Source: an uncultured Bacillota bacterium | GTDB taxonomy: Bacteria > Bacillota > DTU025 > MWDF01 | DNA: 64,000 bases | NCBI GenBank assembly: GCA_963823655.1 | Contig: CAWGMK010000013.1 | Span: 1 to 64,000 of the forward strand | Direction: 5' to 3' | Shown: one piece after another, positions 45,902 through 53,711 of the stretch | How the letters are laid out: each line of letters opens with the position of its first letter | Position numbering within the stretch: the stretch's first letter is position 1 | Made by a program: the position numbers and the translations under genes | The notes under the pieces: model-generated | The model's database searches: none | Told to the model about the DNA's origin: nothing | The model's input: only the letters and a program-made list of their open reading frames with translations

Positions 45902-47626
45902 TTACGGCTTTATGTAATAGATCTCTTCGAGGTTATGGATCGTTCCGCCGTACGCGGTCGGCTTTACGTTGGCCAGAGTGTTCCTCATGGCTGCGATCGA
46001 CTGAGGGGCCGCGAAGTAGATTAGCGGTACCTGATCGGATACGATCAGCTGCCACTTCTCATAGATGGCCGCGCGCTTGGCGGGGTCAACTACTTTGACG
46101 CCATCGTCAAATATCTTGTCGATCTCAGCTTCCCATGCGGTTGCGGGGGAATCCTGGACGGGGTTCCACATATGCAGTCCGCCGGAGCTGTGCCATACGT
46201 TCCTGCCGTTGTTGGGCTCGACGGAACCGGTAAGGCCGATGATGATGGTATCGAACTCGAAGGTGTCCATAAGCTTCTCGACCAATGTGTTGAAGGTATA
46301 TGTCGTGACCTTGGCGTCGATGCCGGCCTTCTTCAGGTCCTCAACCAGGATGTTGGCTATCTTCATACGGTTGCTGTTCTCGCTGTGGGTGGTCACTTCG
46401 AACTTGACCTGGCGTCCGGTCTTGTCGACCAGCTTGCCGTCCACATACTTGAATCCGCCCTGTGCGAACATGGCCTTCGCCTTGTCGAGGGAGTAGGCGT
46501 ACTGGGTTACGTTCTTGCTCAAGAACTCCTTGTTGGGGGCCGAAACGGCGCTCCACTGGGGTTCAGCGAGTCCTGCATAGACCTGGTTGATGATTGTGGT
46601 CTTGTCTACCAGGTGGGCGACGCCCTTCCTGAAGTACTGGTTGTTGAACCACTCGAACTTCCAGGGCTCCTTGTCCTTTGCGAAGTTCGGGTTCCTGGGG
46701 TTCATATTGAATACGACGAACTCTGTCGAGAATGTCGCGCCGAGGTTGTAAAGGGTGAAGTTCTCCTTCTTCTGGAGATCTTTGAATGTGGCATAGTCGG
46801 TGTTCTTGATGCCGAGTATGTCGGTTTCCGCTGCGCGGAACTTCAGGGTCTGGGTCTCGAGGTTCGGTACGAGCATACGGACGTACCTGGTGATGTACGG
46901 CAGGACCTGGCCCTTGCTGTTCTTCACCCAGTAATTGGCATTGCGCAGATATACTACATATTCATTGGGCTTGTACTGCGCCATTGTGTACATGCCGGTT
47001 CCGACGATGTCCTTGACGGGGGTATTGATGCCCCAGGTCTCGTTGAACTTGCCGGCCTTCCAGGGGGCTTCGAGCTTATGCTTCGGGAGGATCTCAATCA
47101 TGATCTGGCGAAGCAGCGGCGCGAAGGTCGAGGGGAGGGTGAACTCTACGGTATAGGTGTCGATCTTCTTGTACTTGAGGTACTGGCCGTCGATGGTCAG
47201 TACGTCGCGGGAAGAGGTCTGAATGTTCTCGTCGTAAATTACGTCGAAGGAGAAGACCACGTCATCAGCGGTCATTTCCTTGCCGTCGGAGAACTTGACG
47301 CCTTGCCTGAGGAAGAACGTCCATACGAGGCCATCCTCGCTGAACTTCCAGCTCTTGGCCAGGCTGGGGATGACGGCCGTAGTAACGCCGTCGGTTGAGG
47401 TCAGGCCCTCGAATATGGGCGCAAGAATATCGGTTGAAGAGGTCTCAGCTGCAGTCACCGGGTTGAAAGTCTTCGGGTCGGTGATCTGTGCTACAACCAA
47501 CTGGCCGCCGAAGGTGCCTACCGGCATCTCGCTGACCTTGTACTCCGTCGCTGCGGCCATGACCGGCAGCATCATGGAGCCGATGAATAACATCGCCAGG
47601 AAAAGGGACACGGCTCTTTTGAACAT
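45902..47626 (-). CDS. oppA: Family-5 (peptide/oligosaccharide) ABC substrate-binding protein
   Basis: Signal peptide, DPKTFNP, LAKSW..S.DG..WTF.LR.GVKFSDG..TA.DV.F, GTG.Y. Confidence 0.85.
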   Translation of the reverse strand: MFKRAVSLFLAMLFIGSMMLPVMAAATEYKVSEMPVGTFGGQLVVAQITDPKTFNPVTAAETSSTDILAPIFEGLTSTDGVTTAVIPSLAKSWKFSEDGLVWTFFLRQGVKFSDGKEMTADDVVFSFDVIYDENIQTSSRDVLTIDGQYLKYKKIDTYTVEFTLPSTFAPLLRQIMIEILPKHKLEAPWKAGKFNETWGINTPVKDIVGTGMYTMAQYKPNEYVVYLRNANYWVKNSKGQVLPYITRYVRMLVPNLETQTLKFRAAETDILGIKNTDYATFKDLQKKENFTLYNLGATFSTEFVVFNMNPRNPNFAKDKEPWKFEWFNNQYFRKGVAHLVDKTTIINQVYAGLAEPQWSAVSAPNKEFLSKNVTQYAYSLDKAKAMFAQGGFKYVDGKLVDKTGRQVKFEVTTHSENSNRMKIANILVEDLKKAGIDAKVTTYTFNTLVEKLMDTFEFDTIIIGLTGSVEPNNGRNVWHSSGGLHMWNPVQDSPATAWEAEIDKIFDDGVKVVDPAKRAAIYEKWQLIVSDQVPLIYFAAPQSIAAMRNTLANVKPTAYGGTIHNLEEIYYIKP

Positions 47627-47879
47627 CCTTGGAACGCCTCCTTTGTCTTATTAGCTTGCACTTTTCTATTTGGTCTACGTTTAAGTAGCCACACGCGGGT
47701 CAAGATAGATATGACAATTCTTCACGGATACCGTGGAATCCTGCTAATGGGTTATTTTTGCTAATGTTATACTTATCGGGCCGCATAGTCAATATCCGCG
47801 TCGCCCACATACATATAGTATAATTTTACCTAGTGATTATGCAATGAGGCATAATTTGCATCTTTGTACGGGGGTCGAA

Positions 47880-48497
47880 ATGCAGGAACATTATTTTTCG
47901 AAGAAGCCGACGGCGCAGTCGGCGCCTAAGGACATCGCCTATTCATATCTGGGGAAGGCCTTCTCTTTCCGCACCGACGCAGGAGTGTTCTCCAAGACCA
48001 AGGTGGACAGGGGTTCGGACTTGCTCCTTGAGGCGCTCGAGCGCGTTTCTTCCGCCTCATTCCTGGATATGGGATGCGGTTACGGACCTGTGGGGATTTG
48101 TTATGGCGCGGCACATCCTAAATCAAGGATATTCATGGCCGACATTAATGAGAGGGCTTGTGCGCTTGCAACATCGAACGCCTCGGCCAACGGCGTGAAG
48201 GCGGATGTCAGGCAATCGGACGGTTTCGCCTCCCTTGCAGGAATGGAGTTCGACTGCATAGCCATGAATCCTCCGATAAGGGCGGGCAAGGAAATCCTCA
48301 GAAGGCTGATGGCAGAGGCCAAAGCAGCCCTTGTCGACGGCGGGAGGCTCTTCATTGTGATCAGGACCAGGCAGGGGGCGGGCAGTATGAGAGAATTCCT
48401 CACAGAGCTGTTCGGCAACTGTGAAGAACCAGAAAGAGGCTCCGGCTTCAGGGTCCTTGAGTGCACTAAGGGTGCTGCAGAAACGGAGCAAGACTAG
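47880..48497 (+). CDS. rsmC: RsmC/YbxB-like class I SAM methyltransferase
   Basis: HYFS..P, F.TD.GVFS...VD.GS.LL, LD.GCGYG..G, DINERA, NPPIRAGK, QGA.S. Confidence 0.85.
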   Translation: MQEHYFSKKPTAQSAPKDIAYSYLGKAFSFRTDAGVFSKTKVDRGSDLLLEALERVSSASFLDMGCGYGPVGICYGAAHPKSRIFMADINERACALATSNASANGVKADVRQSDGFASLAGMEFDCIAMNPPIRAGKEILRRLMAEAKAALVDGGRLFIVIRTRQGAGSMREFLTELFGNCEEPERGSGFRVLECTKGAAETEQD

Positions 48498-48546
48498 CTT
48501 ATTGAGTGCATGCCAGCTTAGATTTGATTTGTGAAGCCGATTACTG

Positions 48547-49980
48547 ATGGCAGGTGGTAGCGAAGTGGCTGAGTATCTGGCAAATGTGGCCCCAAAGACG
48601 AACATTACGCTTCTATCGTTCGGCTACAAATACGGTGTGCCGAACGACGCGGAATTCCTGTATGACGTGCGGTTCCTGAGGAACCCGTATTATATTCCGC
48701 ACCTGAAGAGCCTGAACGGCAACTTCAGCGCGGTATCCGATTATGTGATGGAAGATCCGCTTACCGAGCAGATCATTAACCAGATAACCCAGGTTGTCTC
48801 ACTGACTGACGAAAGGTACAGGCAGAGGGGCAGGGGCTGGCTGGTGATAGGAATCGGCTGTACCGGAGGAAGGCACAGGTCGGTAGCGGTCGTAAACGAG
48901 CTGAGAAGAAGGCTCGAGCAGGACGGCTACCCGGTGAACGTCCTTCACAGGGACATAGACAAGGAAATCGACGCCTACTTCGGGCAGGATCCTGCATGGA
49001 CAGGGTTCAAACGCAGCCATGAGGAGGAGAGCAAAGGAAGCGGATTGAGGATAGCGGCAATAGGAGGGGGCACGGGGATGCCGGCCGTACTTAGGGGGCT
49101 TAAGCACTTCACCTCCAACATAACCGCGATAGTGACTGTGACCGACGACGGAGGAAGCTCTGGCAGGCTGGTCAAGGAGATGGATATGCCACCTCCGGGG
49201 GATATTAGGAACTGCATACTCGCTATGTCAAACACCGAACCACTTATGGAGAAGCTGTTCCAGTACAGGTTTGCGGCGAACGGGGACATCACAGGGCATG
49301 CATTTGGTAACCTTTTCCTTGCCGCGATGACCGATATTACCGGTGATTTCCAGGAAGCCATCAGGGAATGCTCCACGGTGCTTTCTGTAAGAGGCGAGGT
49401 TGTGCCGGCAACTATGAGCATGTGCCGTTTAAGAGCTGAGATGCAAGACGGCTCCGAAGTATACGGAGAGACCGAAATCAACCGGTACGGCGTCGGAATC
49501 AAGCACCTGAACATGGAGCCTGAGGGGATAAGGGCCCTGCCCACTGCCATAGATGCCATCCTGGATGCTGACCTTGTGGTCATAGGCCCGGGAAGCCTTT
49601 ACACTTCGATAATCACGAATCTTCTCATACCGGGCATCGCCGATGCGCTTCGATCCACCAGGGCAAGGAAGGTATATGTGTGCAATACCATGACCGAGGC
49701 CGGCGAGACCAATCAATACACAGCATGCGACCATCTCAAAGCCATGTTCGACCATGCGGGGCAGGGGATCTGCGATACGATAATCGTAAACAGTTCGCTA
49801 ATGCCTGACGTGCTGCTGGATGCTTACCGCAAAGAGGGCGCGGCCCAGGTGAGCTACGATCCTGTGGCTCTTCGTGCTTTGGGCATGCATGTGCTTGAAG
49901 CGGATGTAGCCTCTGCTGGCGAGCATTACAAGCACGACTCCGGCAAGCTGGCTAAAGCCATAATCAGCCTCATTGCCTAG
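48547..49980 (+). CDS. Fusion of a RapZ/YvcJ C-terminal domain and YvcK/GlmR (UPF0052)
   Basis: Residues ~19-140: SFGYKYGVP..A..L.DVRFL.NPYY, IGCTGG.HRSV, HRD. From residue ~167: IGGGTG, TAIVTV.DDGGSSG.L, PPGDIRNC, GH.FGNL, GPGSLYTS, HD..KLA. One open frame. Confidence 0.9.
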   Translation: MAGGSEVAEYLANVAPKTNITLLSFGYKYGVPNDAEFLYDVRFLRNPYYIPHLKSLNGNFSAVSDYVMEDPLTEQIINQITQVVSLTDERYRQRGRGWLVIGIGCTGGRHRSVAVVNELRRRLEQDGYPVNVLHRDIDKEIDAYFGQDPAWTGFKRSHEEESKGSGLRIAAIGGGTGMPAVLRGLKHFTSNITAIVTVTDDGGSSGRLVKEMDMPPPGDIRNCILAMSNTEPLMEKLFQYRFAANGDITGHAFGNLFLAAMTDITGDFQEAIRECSTVLSVRGEVVPATMSMCRLRAEMQDGSEVYGETEINRYGVGIKHLNMEPEGIRALPTAIDAILDADLVVIGPGSLYTSIITNLLIPGIADALRSTRARKVYVCNTMTEAGETNQYTACDHLKAMFDHAGQGICDTIIVNSSLMPDVLLDAYRKEGAAQVSYDPVALRALGMHVLEADVASAGEHYKHDSGKLAKAIISLIA

Positions 49981-49995
49981 GCGAGGGGATCGAAT

Positions 49996-51060
49996 ATGCA
50001 GCTGTACGAGAAGATGAAAGACGAGCTGGTCAGAATCTCCGGGGAGGATGCCTGCTGCAGATCCGCGGAGCTTTCGGCAATAGCGAAGGTGAACGGCACC
50101 GTTTATCTTTCTTTCGGCAATAAGATGAGGCTGATGCTCAAAGATGCAAGCGCCGCTGTCGCAAGAAGGACCGTGGCATTGCTTGCGGAGGCAGGTTGCA
50201 GGGATGTAGAGATCGTAGTGAGGATGAGGGAGAGGATACACAAGTCCAACTCCTACATTATTAGAATAAACTCCGACGCTACGGTAAAGAAATTGTTGAC
50301 CGAACTTGGCATATATGACGGAAACGGGCTGCTCGATGAGATCCCGAAAAGCATTTTCAAGAAGAGATGCTGCATGAGGGCCTACCTTAGGGGTGTTTTC
50401 CTGGGGGCGGGGTATCTGGGCAAACCGGCTTACGGCCACCACCTTGAGATAGCGGTCGAAAACGGCAGGTTCGCCGAGTCGTTGATTTCATTGATGCAAA
50501 AGTTCGATATGAAGCCAAAAGTCATAGAACGGCGGACCTATCACGTAGTATATCTGAAGGATGGGGACGACATAGTGCAGTTTCTAAACGTCGTCGGAGC
50601 CCATTCCTCCCTGTTAGATTTCGAAAACGCGAGGGTGATGAAGTCCATAAGAAACGATGTAAACAGAATCGTTAATGCTGAGGAGGCCAACATGGGTAAG
50701 ACCATAGAGGCATCCGTAAGCCAGATAGAGGACATCGAACTGATAAAGCAGGCCCTCGGTTTCGGCAGGCTTACACCGCCTCTTGCCGAGGCAGCGCGCA
50801 TAAGGCTCGAGAACCCGGACTCCACCCTTGCCGAGCTTGGCGCGATGCTCAAGAAGCCCATAGGCAAAAGCGGCATGAACCACAGGCTCAGAAGGCTTGC
50901 TAAGCTGGCCTCCGAGCTTCGGGCAGGGATTGAGAACGTTAAAGTTGATTGCTTACGACCCGGGGGGAAAGCCTTGCGAAGATGCGCTTCTGTTCTATGT
51001 TACAGCTATGTGTTCGAATCGTCGTGTTCTCTGCCTGTTCAGGACGAACTTTCAGGTTAA
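49996..51060 (+). CDS. whiA: DNA-binding protein WhiA (about 45 extra C-terminal residues)
   Basis: K.EL....CC..AEL, YLRG.FL..G, HLE, YLK....I..FL...GA, RN.VNR..N.E.AN..KT, R..NP...L.ELG, KSG.NHRLR. Confidence 0.93.
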   Translation: MQLYEKMKDELVRISGEDACCRSAELSAIAKVNGTVYLSFGNKMRLMLKDASAAVARRTVALLAEAGCRDVEIVVRMRERIHKSNSYIIRINSDATVKKLLTELGIYDGNGLLDEIPKSIFKKRCCMRAYLRGVFLGAGYLGKPAYGHHLEIAVENGRFAESLISLMQKFDMKPKVIERRTYHVVYLKDGDDIVQFLNVVGAHSSLLDFENARVMKSIRNDVNRIVNAEEANMGKTIEASVSQIEDIELIKQALGFGRLTPPLAEAARIRLENPDSTLAELGAMLKKPIGKSGMNHRLRRLAKLASELRAGIENVKVDCLRPGGKALRRCASVLCYSYVFESSCSLPVQDELSG

Positions 51061-51133
51061 TTGAGCGCCAACAGACTGATGATTGGCAATCTAACAGCTC
51101 CTCAAGATGAGCAAGATATAACAAATCGGGCTT

Positions 51134-52260
51134 TCACCTTAATGATGCAAAGAAGATGCTCAAAGCAAGCTCATTGAGGGTTCTCATGTCATTTTGGTTC
51201 TTTATGCTTAGTATCTCATTCTGAATTGCAAGGAATGCTTCCACAACATCGGGATCAAAACGGTTTCCTTTTCCATCTTTTGATTATGTTAAGTGATGCT
51301 TCTATGGATAAAGCTTCTTTGTAAGGCCGTTTGTATGTAAGCGCGTCGAATGCATCGGCAACTGCGGTGATTCGACCGGCGATAGGTATCTCATTACCTT
51401 TTAGGCCATAGGGATAGCCATTTCCATCCCATCTCTCATGATGGGATATTGCAATGGCTTCTCCCATTCTAATGCTTTCTGCGTCCGAACCACTCAGGAT
51501 CTCTGCGCCAATGTTCGTATGCCTTTTCATAATCGCCGATTTATCTGAGATCGAGAGTTGTAGGCTTCAGCAAAATGGCATCAGGAATTCCGATCTTACC
51601 TAGATCATGCATGGGGGATGCGGTAAGAATAAGGGCCACGGTCCTTTTATCAAATCCCATCTGACGGGCAATGGCCGCGCAATAGAGGCTTATGCTCCTA
51701 ATATGTTCACCAGTACCTTTATCTTTATATTCAGAAGCCGATGACAGACGGAAGATCGTGTCAAGTGAAGCTGCCTCCAGGTCCTTATGCGCTTGAACAA
51801 TCTCGGCCGTCTTTGATGCTACCTCAGCCTCCAATTCTTTTCTATAGTCATTCATCAATTTATTGTATAGCCCTGATTTTCAGTAGGGATCGAACTCGGG
51901 CTATCGAACTCCGATCTATCAACCGGTTTCGAGATAAAGTCGTCGCAGCCTGCATCAATACCTTTAACTCTGGCTTCTGTCTCCTGCAAAGCTGTAATAA
52001 GGATAATAGGAACCATGACGCCGTAGAGATATCTCTTTCTGATTTTACGTGTAATTTCAAAACCGTCAAGCCCGGGCATTAAAACATCCAGCAGATACTA
52101 GATCTACCATATTGCTCGACCAGATAATTCTTAAGTGCTTCTTCACCATTACTCGCTGTGATGATTTAATGCGTAACTCTCCGAGTTGAAGATACGTTTT
52201 CATCAGTTCAACACTCTGGAGATCATCGTCAACTATTAGAATTATAGGTTTGTTTTTCAT
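51134..52260 (-). pseudogene. Response regulator with HD-GYP phosphodiesterase (RpfG-like), many frameshifts
   Basis: ILIVDDD, LLDV.MPG.DG, G.DDFISKP, EYKD..TG.H, MHDLGKIGIPD.IL.KP, HHERWDG.GYP.GL and [14 protein letters not shown] occur across at least five fragments; the 3' end is approximate. Confidence 0.85.

Positions 52261-52690: not shown

Positions 52691-53711
<1,021 letters not shown>

Follow-up and report, generated by a model that had tools for sequence, protein, structure and literature searches.

A RapZ/YvcJ C-terminal domain fused to a complete GlmR/YvcK in a genus of uncultured Bacillota

The window, a stretch of 64,000 nucleotides from an uncultured Bacillota bacterium, carries at 48547..49980 (forward strand) a gene in which the C-terminal domain (CTD) of RapZ/YvcJ and a complete GlmR/YvcK are found on one polypeptide chain. 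It is confirmed that this is a genuine fusion that is selectively maintained. A chance match is excluded by the E-values of the domains and by the like architecture in all six other genomes of the genus. The genus as a whole has lost the P-loop N-terminal domain of YvcJ. It is rather probable that the fusion is best explained as a hard-wired YvcJ(CTD)-GlmR module that would control the flux of amino sugars and cell-wall precursors.

Gene structure and neighbourhood

The fusion gene is one uninterrupted open reading frame of 477 aa from the ATG at 48547. The surrounding stop-to-stop frame measures 481 aa, leaving four further open codons 5' of this ATG. An alternative start, the GTG at 48565 (forward strand), would give a 471-aa product; a Shine-Dalgarno-like hexamer (AGGTGG) lies 7 nt upstream of it, and the relative P0001 (97% identical) has been called from the equivalent codon. 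In the Pfam scan the RapZ/YvcJ CTD (48601..48960, forward strand, residues 19-138) matches PapZ_C (PF22740) from model position 2 to 121 of 121 with an E-value of 3.6e-42, and is thus complete. The scan places CofD (PF01933) at residues 169-454 (E 6.5e-112) and finds no match in the fusion protein to the P-loop N-domain (PF03668). The YvcK/GlmR domain with the stop codon occupies 49051..49980 (forward strand, residues 169-477), and the NCBIfam model for YvcK (TIGR01826) scores 384.2 bits (cut-off 196) over residues 169-476. The NCBIfam model for RapZ (NF003828) reaches 142.2 bits, which is below its cut-off of 244, and is matched only at positions 155-278 of 278. Both scans and the reading frame thus bear out what an earlier note had read from the DNA, namely a single 477-aa frame that holds a RapZ CTD and YvcK and is devoid of the P-loop domain. 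The polar linker that it had described between the domains is likewise present (48961..49050, forward strand, residues 139-168, with a conserved core GQDPAWTGF), although it measures 30 aa from one domain envelope to the next and not about 25. The identity of a CofD/F420 enzyme was considered and rejected: TIGR01819 reaches 30.8 bits where 257.45 are required, and the structural matches have TM-scores of 0.59-0.68 only.

The CTD aligns ungapped to residues 162-281 of E. coli RapZ, and its AlphaFold2 (AF2) model superposes on 5o5s with a TM-score of 0.92 and an rmsd of 1.6 Å. The GlmR part matches 2hzb with an E-value of 7.6e-94 and, again as an AF2 model, a TM-score of 0.95 (rmsd 1.5 Å). The linker is modelled with a pLDDT below 50, and the pTM of the whole chain is 0.69.

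Upstream lies a SAM methyltransferase of the MTS family with an RsmC/RlmG-like small domain (47844..48497, forward strand; PF05175, E 3.3e-43). The intergenic gap (48498..48546) is 49 bp long and too short for the RapZ N-terminal domain. The spacing of about 50 bp without room for this domain, as given earlier, therefore stands, whereas 'rsmC' is a loose name for the upstream gene, since it scores 78 bits against the RsmC model NF007023 (cut-off 295). It is a conserved neighbour: by tblastn, this methyltransferase lies upstream at every one of the 14 loci in which the fused gene's start is present, and at no locus where rapZ and yvcK are separate. Downstream, whiA (49996..51060, forward strand) starts 15 bp after the fusion gene; its match to TIGR00647 (272 bits) agrees with the earlier statement that whiA follows as usual, and whiA is present in 75 of the 104 loci examined. 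A promoter and terminator scan of 47500-51400 returned fewer sites than were found in shuffled sequence and is thus uninformative. Two neighbouring genes are split by frameshifts, namely gap (~53184-53257) and a response-regulator/HD-GYP gene (51255-52260).

Distribution, selection and origin of the fusion

There is next to no probability that the gene is an artefact or a pseudogene, that is to say a misassembly, a collapsed deletion or a decaying rapZ remnant joined to yvcK. Such a reading could draw on the chimeric contigs that occur in this assembly and on the two nearby frameshift-split genes. However, the fusion recurs in six of the six other genomes of the genus (five single-frame matches and one contig-end piece that crosses the junction), and contigs from four independent metagenome runs (three studies) span the junction without indels or joints. 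One of them (X1 record 2) runs from 48418 to 49172 free of gaps. Further runs (X10-X20), which have small word shares, were left out of these counts. The stop or frameshift that had been considered for the linker is absent from the contigs of all four runs over 48961-49050. Among these contigs, 30 of the 32 listed substitutions in the open reading frame fall at third codon positions. Sequencing or assembly errors break frames and would not make a conserved in-frame linker. In the closer orthologue pairs, dN/dS is 0.007-0.038 for the CTD and 0.020-0.036 for YvcK, while the linker shows no non-synonymous change in three such pairs at a pS of 0.45-0.64. Strong purifying selection thus acts on the CTD, the linker and YvcK alike (dN/dS ~0.01-0.04); such values, far below 1 in each part, together with the completeness of both domains, argue against an artefact or a pseudogene.

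Among 80 loci of species genomes, six are fused, 58 have separate genes and 16 hold YvcK or part of YvcK only. The six fused loci share an identical 75-nt spacing, with only 12-27 open codons upstream. Open frames of 677-862 aa in five genomes (G008, G027, G028, G034 and G035) were considered as long fusions and rejected, as the DNA shows separate genes. The single match in G007 was discarded too, being in fact two adjacent genes in different frames.

In the order, 14 of 21 genomes have a RapZ N-domain that scores above the cut-off. The only genome of the genus with such a hit is the source assembly (G000); in the six others no RapZ P-loop domain passes the cut-off. A separate full-length rapZ, the presence of which the earlier note had left to be checked, was indeed found in the source assembly. 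However, this sole copy sits in a segment of a chimeric contig (C10, with a probable join near 109 kb) with 68-72% GC (~53% elsewhere) and in all likelihood comes from another organism. A call of presence or absence from this metagenome-assembled genome alone would mislead, as the apparent separate rapZ comes from a chimeric contig.

The architecture is not confined to the window-type family. A second lineage of PapZ_C+CofD proteins without the N-domain comprises 24 protein clusters (P0230 and P0270-P0292), and intact three-domain RapZ-YvcK fusions are represented by P0121, P0295, P0306 and P0316. In a tree of the YvcK domain, the window-type fusions (lineage 1) group apart from lineage 2, and both apart from the three-domain fusions, each clade having an SH-aLRT support of 100%. 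Constraining the two N-domain-less lineages to a single origin lowers the likelihood by 66 lnL and is rejected (p-AU 0.006), in a test that used the simpler model LG+G4 and 60 of the 65 rows (five long-branch rows were dropped) and that was run after the first tree had been seen. The N-domain-less fusion thus appears to have arisen at least twice. With P0230 as query, a search of 401 genomes sampled from the window's phylum, which included no positive control, found no member of lineage 2 at E <= 1e-100, and the search of metagenome contigs returned one weak unrelated locus only. P0007, P0009 and P0011, singletons from one organism with differing junctions that cut the GCTGG loop, were not counted among the established three-domain fusions, and neither was P0008, a singleton with a truncated CTD. 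In P0307 and P0344 the CTD matches are incomplete. Matches in a protein atlas (scores 0.77-0.83) are leads only. The literature searched held no description of a natural RapZ-YvcK fusion. To this extent the architecture is undescribed, as had been supposed, but it is already present in public protein sets, including the second lineage and the three-domain fusions. One member of the window-type family has been named 'RNase adapter RapZ' by NCBI.

Most likely, the fusion originated in an ancestral pair of adjacent rapZ and yvcK genes, in which the rapZ stop codon would have been lost and the N-domain deleted. By the loss of the stop codon, the RapZ tail and the YvcK N-terminus would have become the linker. 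In keeping with this, the linker is similar in sequence to the junction of the sister family, where it recalls the end of RapZ followed by the start of YvcK.

Ligand sites and possible functions

In the hard-wired module, a small PFK-like fold with a phosphate pocket of the C-x5-R type (the CTD) is tethered covalently by the conserved linker to a complete GlmR. Judged from conserved residues, the fusion may do the job of GlmR: it would bind UDP-GlcNAc, possibly act as an accessory uridylyltransferase, and stimulate GlmS or another step towards cell-wall precursors. The residues that contact the UDP-sugar, T14, N218 and Y265 in B. subtilis (T13, N217 and Y264 in B. halodurans), are identical in the fusion (T176, N380 and Y427). 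The putative uridylyltransferase residues D40, D41 and N198 of L. monocytogenes are conserved as D200, D201 and N358, a mapping made by motif position (+3 offset from the B. halodurans numbering) and not by an alignment with the Listeria protein. The equivalent of R301 (B. subtilis; R300 in B. halodurans) is K462, a lysine in seven of seven family members. As R301 is critical for UDP-GlcNAc binding in B. subtilis, this lysine counts against the module.

It was shown that GlmR binds YvcJ only with UDP-GlcNAc, that the K22A variant of YvcJ still binds GlmR, and that the affinity of the separate proteins is weak (KD ~9 µM with 1 mM UDP-GlcNAc; PMC7525490). The YvcJ-derived partner, which joins B. 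subtilis GlmR only at high UDP-GlcNAc, would be permanently attached in the fusion, and the control by the YvcJ N-domain, which depends on nucleotide and UDP-GlcNAc, would be dispensed with. The CTD pocket would provide GlmR with an extra site for phosphate or a phospho-sugar, either regulatory or catalytic. Two observations from other species weigh against the module. In both E. faecalis and B. subtilis, YvcJ needs the Walker A lysine of the N-domain for its known in-vivo activity and for binding UDP-GlcNAc, so that a CTD-only module cannot do what YvcJ is known to do there. Furthermore, GlmR of E. faecalis works by a route other than GlmS.

The pocket itself is a phosphate (sulfate/malonate) site, the loop of which (C105-T-G-G-R-H-R111; 48859..48879, forward strand) corresponds to C247, T248, G249, H252 and R253 of E. 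coli RapZ, where the roles of the residues have been described (PMC5737377, PMC9841335). The C, T, G, H and R of this loop do not vary among the 31 fused sequences aligned, which come from three independent fusion clades, and neither do R42 and Y48. Of the E. coli pocket (H190, T248, G249, H252 and R253), four of the five residues are kept as T106, G107, H110 and R111, in addition to C247 (C105). The equivalent of H190 is Y48, a tyrosine in every one of the 31 fused sequences.

These residues bear on whether one chain might sense both ends of the pathway, with GlcN6P, its first metabolite, bound in the CTD pocket and UDP-GlcNAc, its last, in GlmR, and tune GlmS. Such a dual sensor seems unlikely. 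It would fit the four retained pocket residues and C247, the binding of GlcN6P by the E. coli RapZ CTD (Khan 2020, as reported in PMC9841335) and the largely kept UDP-sugar residues of GlmR. It would also fit, as would the hard-wired module, the presence of glmS in the genome (G000:C10:495507-497333, 799 bits), in which no glmS ribozyme was found (97% completeness). However, H190 has become tyrosine in all fused sequences and the H190A substitution inactivates E. coli RapZ (PMC9841335), GlcN6P caused no thermal shift of E. faecalis YvcJ, and the GlcN6P site of RapZ itself is described as uncharacterised (PMC9841335). Of the single-chain amino-sugar sensor put forward earlier, the pocket and UDP-sugar residues are largely in place, while GlcN6P sensing by the CTD is known from E. 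coli only and E. faecalis YvcJ is negative. It is quite improbable that the fusion is an RNA-binding adaptor, in which a CTD dimer would bind structured RNA, much as that of RapZ binds GlmZ and GlmY, and recruit it to GlmR or couple its fate to UDP-GlcNAc. In E. coli the CTD dimer alone binds sRNAs (PMC9841335), the pocket and the equivalents of K170, R184, R196 (K), R238 and K251 (R/K) are conserved in the fusion, and the pI of the CTD is 8.1 (5.1 for the GlmR part). Against this, the enterobacterial basic tail (RxRxKNxQxRHRTxxKRK) is not conserved: the positions of K270, K281, R282 and K283 hold Y/F, K, E and I/M/L, respectively, and the CTD has no free C-terminus but continues into the linker. 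K194 is replaced by H/E/L/D and R211 by E/Q. There is no evidence of RNA binding by Gram-positive YvcJ (PMC7525490), GlmY and GlmZ are enterobacterial (PMC9841335), and no glmS ribozyme was found. The possible RNA binding raised in the earlier note thus retains the phosphate pocket and the K170/R184 equivalents, but loses its main support, the basic tail.

The CTD could also be a mere oligomerisation or scaffold module that replaces the N-terminal membrane segment of related YvcK proteins and has no ligand or catalytic role. RapZ CTDs do make symmetric dimers (PMC5737377, PMC9841335), unfused YvcKs near the window family are 430-460 aa long with an N-terminal hydrophobic extension, and YvcK takes other N-terminal additions, e.g. 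a HAD hydrolase. We nevertheless regard this scaffold as improbable, as the C-T-G-G-x-H-R loop, R42 and Y48, invariant throughout the 31 sequences, are not required by mere dimerisation, and the sister family of the same order has a short YvcK without extension.

Returning to the hard-wired module, the truncated fusion arose at least twice, which suggests that the physical partnership of YvcJ with GlmR probably rests on the CTD and not on the P-loop domain. A wider claim, that the CTD and GlmR form the true functional core of the yvcJ-glmR module, is more doubtful: the C-x5-R pocket would bind or act on a phospho-amino-sugar beside the UDP-GlcNAc/uridylyltransferase site of GlmR, and the P-loop N-domain would be a dispensable regulatory add-on. 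The function of YvcJ is called unclear or poorly understood (PMC7525490, PMC10986989), and the fusion may serve as a natural experiment suggesting which half of it works with GlmR. As 'Rosetta stone' fusions in which the CTD alone of YvcJ has been retained, these proteins predict that the CTD acts with GlmR and that the conserved phosphate pocket matters. The fusion is also a ready single-chain construct for a structure of the YvcJ-GlmR complex, which is weak as separate proteins.

Comparison with known systems

CofD/FbiA, the 2-phospho-L-lactate transferase of F420 synthesis, shares the Pfam superfamily PF01933 with the fusion, which is not a CofD enzyme. The closest architectures are those of lineage 2 and the three-domain fusions. 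They share the domain order of the window protein and its invariant pocket loop, and in lineage 2 the N-domain is likewise missing. However, they are only 36-44% identical to the window protein, and their linkers measure 19 and 18 aa instead of 30 aa.

E. coli RapZ (5O5O, 5O5S, 8B0I) has the CTD fold in common with the fusion, as well as C247, T248, G249, H252, R253, K170 and R184. In contrast, the fusion is devoid of the N-domain and the basic tail, carries tyrosine in place of H190, and its CTD runs at the C-terminus into GlmR. Without the N-domain, the domain-swapped tetramer that presents GlmZ to RNase E cannot form.

The YvcJ-GlmR (YvcK) system of B. subtilis and E. faecalis, encoded in the yvcJ-glmR-whiA/yvcL operon, shares with the fusion both protein families and their order ahead of whiA, and its UDP-sugar residues of GlmR are largely conserved. 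The fusion differs from it in being one polypeptide, in the absence of the P-loop N-domain (K22/K18; UDP-GlcNAc/NTP) and in the replacement of R301 by lysine.

The fusion gene and its neighbourhood

The gene at 48547-49980 (+) is one uninterrupted ORF of 477 aa with two complete domains. The RapZ C-terminal domain (CTD; PF22740, residues 19-138, Pfam model positions 2-121 of 121, E 3.6e-42) is followed by CofD/YvcK (PF01933, residues 169-454, E 6.5e-112). The C-terminal part scores 384 bits with the NCBIfam YvcK model TIGR01826 (cut-off 196), while the RapZ equivalog NF003828 reaches 142 bits, below its cut-off of 244, and covers just positions 155-278 of 278. The earlier note, which had reported this CTD-YvcK fusion, was right about the structure. 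It was also right that there is no space upstream for the P-loop domain of RapZ (N-domain), as the preceding gene lies at 49 bp and only 4 more codons are open 5' of the ORF. As it had described, whiA follows, 15 bp downstream. The preceding gene encodes a methyltransferase of the MTS family; 'rsmC', the name used in the note, is a loose label, since the RsmC score is well below the cut-off. The order MTS-fusion-whiA is kept in all fused loci. GTG 48565, with AGGTGG 7 nt ahead, is a plausible alternative start: in P0001, a protein 97% identical to the window protein, the equivalent codon is the annotated start.

Further downstream, the response-regulator receiver and HD-GYP (HD_5) gene at 51255-52260 (-) is broken into four ORFs (64, 74, 105 and 91 aa), as a pseudogene or through assembly indel errors. 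The glyceraldehyde-3-phosphate dehydrogenase gene gap (52703-53711, +) is split into overlapping ORFs (52703-53257 and 53184-53711), the frameshift lying directly past the SCTTNCLAP motif, at about 53184-53257.

The presence of frameshifted genes nearby could suggest that the fusion itself is an assembly artefact, yet assembly errors disrupt reading frames and do not generate an in-frame fusion that is conserved, and this explanation is extremely improbable. In a set of 41 genomes (the source assembly and 40 relatives), the fusion was found in all six other genomes of the genus, five times as a single-frame match and once, in G005, as a contig-end piece that spans residues 15-269 and hence crosses the junction. 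When 80 loci were checked by frame in a one-genome-per-species scan, 6 were fused, all from uncultured Bacillota/Clostridia MAGs, the two matches always standing 75 nt apart and no more than 12-27 codons being open upstream. At the others, rapZ and yvcK were separate (58) or only YvcK or part of it was present (16). A stop or frameshift in the linker had been named as a point to check: no indel or joint over the fusion was reported in metagenome contigs (not raw reads) of four runs from three studies, and one contig spans 48418-49172 gap-free. By our count in these contigs, 30 of the 32 listed ORF substitutions, including those in the linker, fall at third codon positions. Nei-Gojobori estimates between orthologues, near synonymous saturation for pairs with the window gene, gave dN/dS values of 0.007-0.038 (CTD) and 0.020-0.036 (YvcK part) in three closer pairs, with zero non-synonymous changes in the linker (pS 0.45-0.64).

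Distribution, origins and loss of the N-domain

When 1.84 billion cluster representatives were searched exhaustively with HMMER, 13,382 matched. Of the 150 best hits, three cover both domains: P0006, from the window protein's own family (lineage 1); P0121 (630 aa), with intact RapZ_N, PapZ_C and CofD; and P0230 (453 aa; PapZ_C and CofD), which shares 36% identity with the window protein. P0230 heads a second N-domain-less lineage of 24 clusters (431-457 aa, mutual identity 50-100%, 19-aa linker) on contigs of up to 4.08 Mb, with PF22740 and PF01933 annotated in 24/24. Its proteins begin precisely with the first strand of the CTD in 16/24 clusters and at an internal Met call in 8/24. Four intact three-domain fusions with an 18-aa linker were found (P0121, P0295, P0316 and P0306, whose source is named as Candidatus Obscuribacterales). 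The architecture is thus less unique than had been thought.

In a YvcK-domain tree of 65 rows (5 from lineage 1, 11 from lineage 2, 5 from three-domain proteins and 44 unfused ones, a random draw out of 335), each of the three kinds of fusion forms a clade of its own (100% SH-aLRT), nested among different unfused YvcKs. When lineages 1 and 2 are constrained to group, lnL falls by 66 (p-AU 0.006; LG+G4, 5 long-branch rows dropped). A search of 401 genomes sampled from the window's phylum did not find lineage 2. Fusion without the N-domain has therefore occurred on at least two occasions. The linker of the window protein, with the conserved core GQDPAWTGF, looks like the RapZ end of the sister family (...HRDIDIGSGDQPASK-stop) joined to a YvcK N-terminus (...LSRRLRVVALGGG), which suggests that a rapZ stop codon was lost.

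YvcK also occurs in other forms. Many YvcKs of related Bacillota (L021-L024, P0010-P0120) have 430-460 aa, with a hydrophobic N-terminal extension of ~100-130 aa that resembles transmembrane helices and would make a membrane-anchored GlmR, versus the 310-330-aa Bacillus type. Further fusions join a HAD-family hydrolase to CofD/YvcK (P0211, 580 aa; P0226, 563 aa) or CofD/YvcK to PrcB_C (P0130, 564 aa).

The check for a separate full-length rapZ gave one match in the source assembly, a 313-aa RapZ followed by YvcK at 36.5-37.3 kb of contig C10. This sole pair lies inside the first ~109 kb of the contig, at 68-72% GC versus 47-58% in the remainder of contig and genome, so the segment is chimeric and most likely foreign. 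Sharp blocks of 65-79% GC (C10:1-~109,000, C6:1-~11,000 and C6:~360,000-397,381) account for ~7% of the assembly (2.3 Mb) and have the look of chimeric joins to a GC-rich organism's DNA. The N-domain exceeds the cut-off in 14/21 genomes of the order and, within the genus, only in the source assembly. In the six other genus genomes (77-98% complete) it stays below: three have matches of 19-21 bits that cover just the P-loop (model positions 1-30), and the other three have none. We conclude that the N-domain was lost from the genus.

The two RapZ domains also occur apart elsewhere, as in the control genomes of Bacteroides thetaiotaomicron (PF22740 over cut-off, PF03668 not) and Synechococcus elongatus (the reverse). 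At a locus of a neighbouring family (G007:C77:27093-31451), rapZ is possibly frameshifted: its N-domain lies in two frames (model positions 2-35 and 51-155), and yvcK begins 15 bp past it in another frame.

Fold, conserved sites and proposed role

AlphaFold2, run on an alignment of 68 rows (pTM 0.69), models both domains with confidence (mean pLDDT 86.5) and the linker (137-165) with pLDDT < 50. Foldseek matches the YvcK part to 2hzb/2o2z (TM 0.95) and the CTD to 5o5s, the RapZ CTD (TM 0.92, rmsd 1.6 A). The alignment of the CTD with residues 162-281 of E. coli RapZ is free of gaps. In the E. coli protein, the sulfate/malonate pocket is described, in the sections consulted, as H190, T248, G249, H252 and R253, with C247 adjacent (PMC5737377, PMC9841335). 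In the fusion protein these map to Y48, T106, G107, H110, R111 and C105. The loop C-T-G-G-x-H-R is invariant in 31/31 fused sequences of three clades and matches a C-x5-R pattern. It is, we presume, reminiscent of phosphatase P-loops. In the GlmR part, the residues given for B. halodurans as T13, N217, Y264 and R300 (B. subtilis T14, N218, Y265 and R301; PMC5482804, in part) correspond to T176, N380, Y427 and K462, the R-to-K change being found in 7/7 family members. D200/D201 of DDGGSSG and N358 are conserved and, by motif-level mapping, probably equal L. monocytogenes D40, D41 and N198 (PMC10128056, excerpt).

In B. subtilis, according to excerpts of PMC7525490, GlmR stimulates GlmS and UDP-GlcNAc blocks this. 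GlmR-YvcJ binding requires UDP-GlcNAc (KD about 9 uM at 1 mM) and is lost in GlmR Y265A and R301A; YvcJ K22A does not bind UDP-GlcNAc but keeps GlmR binding. In E. faecalis, the portions of PMC10986989 consulted report that YvcJ and GlmR are antagonistic, YvcJ K18A is inactive, GlcN6P gives no shift with YvcJ and GlmR does not act via GlmS.

The fusion would hard-wire the association of the YvcJ CTD with GlmR and discard the nucleotide/UDP-GlcNAc control of the N-domain. Because its pocket is invariant, the CTD may supply a phosphate or phospho-sugar site and not mere bulk; a pure oligomerisation module is very unlikely. The functional ideas of the earlier note are possible but mostly unsupported. 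A dual sensor of GlcN6P and UDP-GlcNAc appears unlikely. An RNA adaptor is less probable still: the CTD lacks the basic tail tied to RNA binding in enterobacterial RapZ, a tail that Foulquier et al. (PMC7525490, excerpts) describe as not conserved in YvcJ homologues in general. The hard-wired CTD-GlmR pair may plausibly act by controlling GlmS at the protein level, as glmS is present in the source genome and no glmS ribozyme was detected there.

The full-text passages retrieved contained no description of a natural YvcJ/RapZ-YvcK/GlmR fusion; 'fusion' and 'fused' denote laboratory constructs there. The fusion is a new form of the known YvcJ-GlmR two-protein module, valuable chiefly as a hint from nature that the CTD is the part of YvcJ with which GlmR works.
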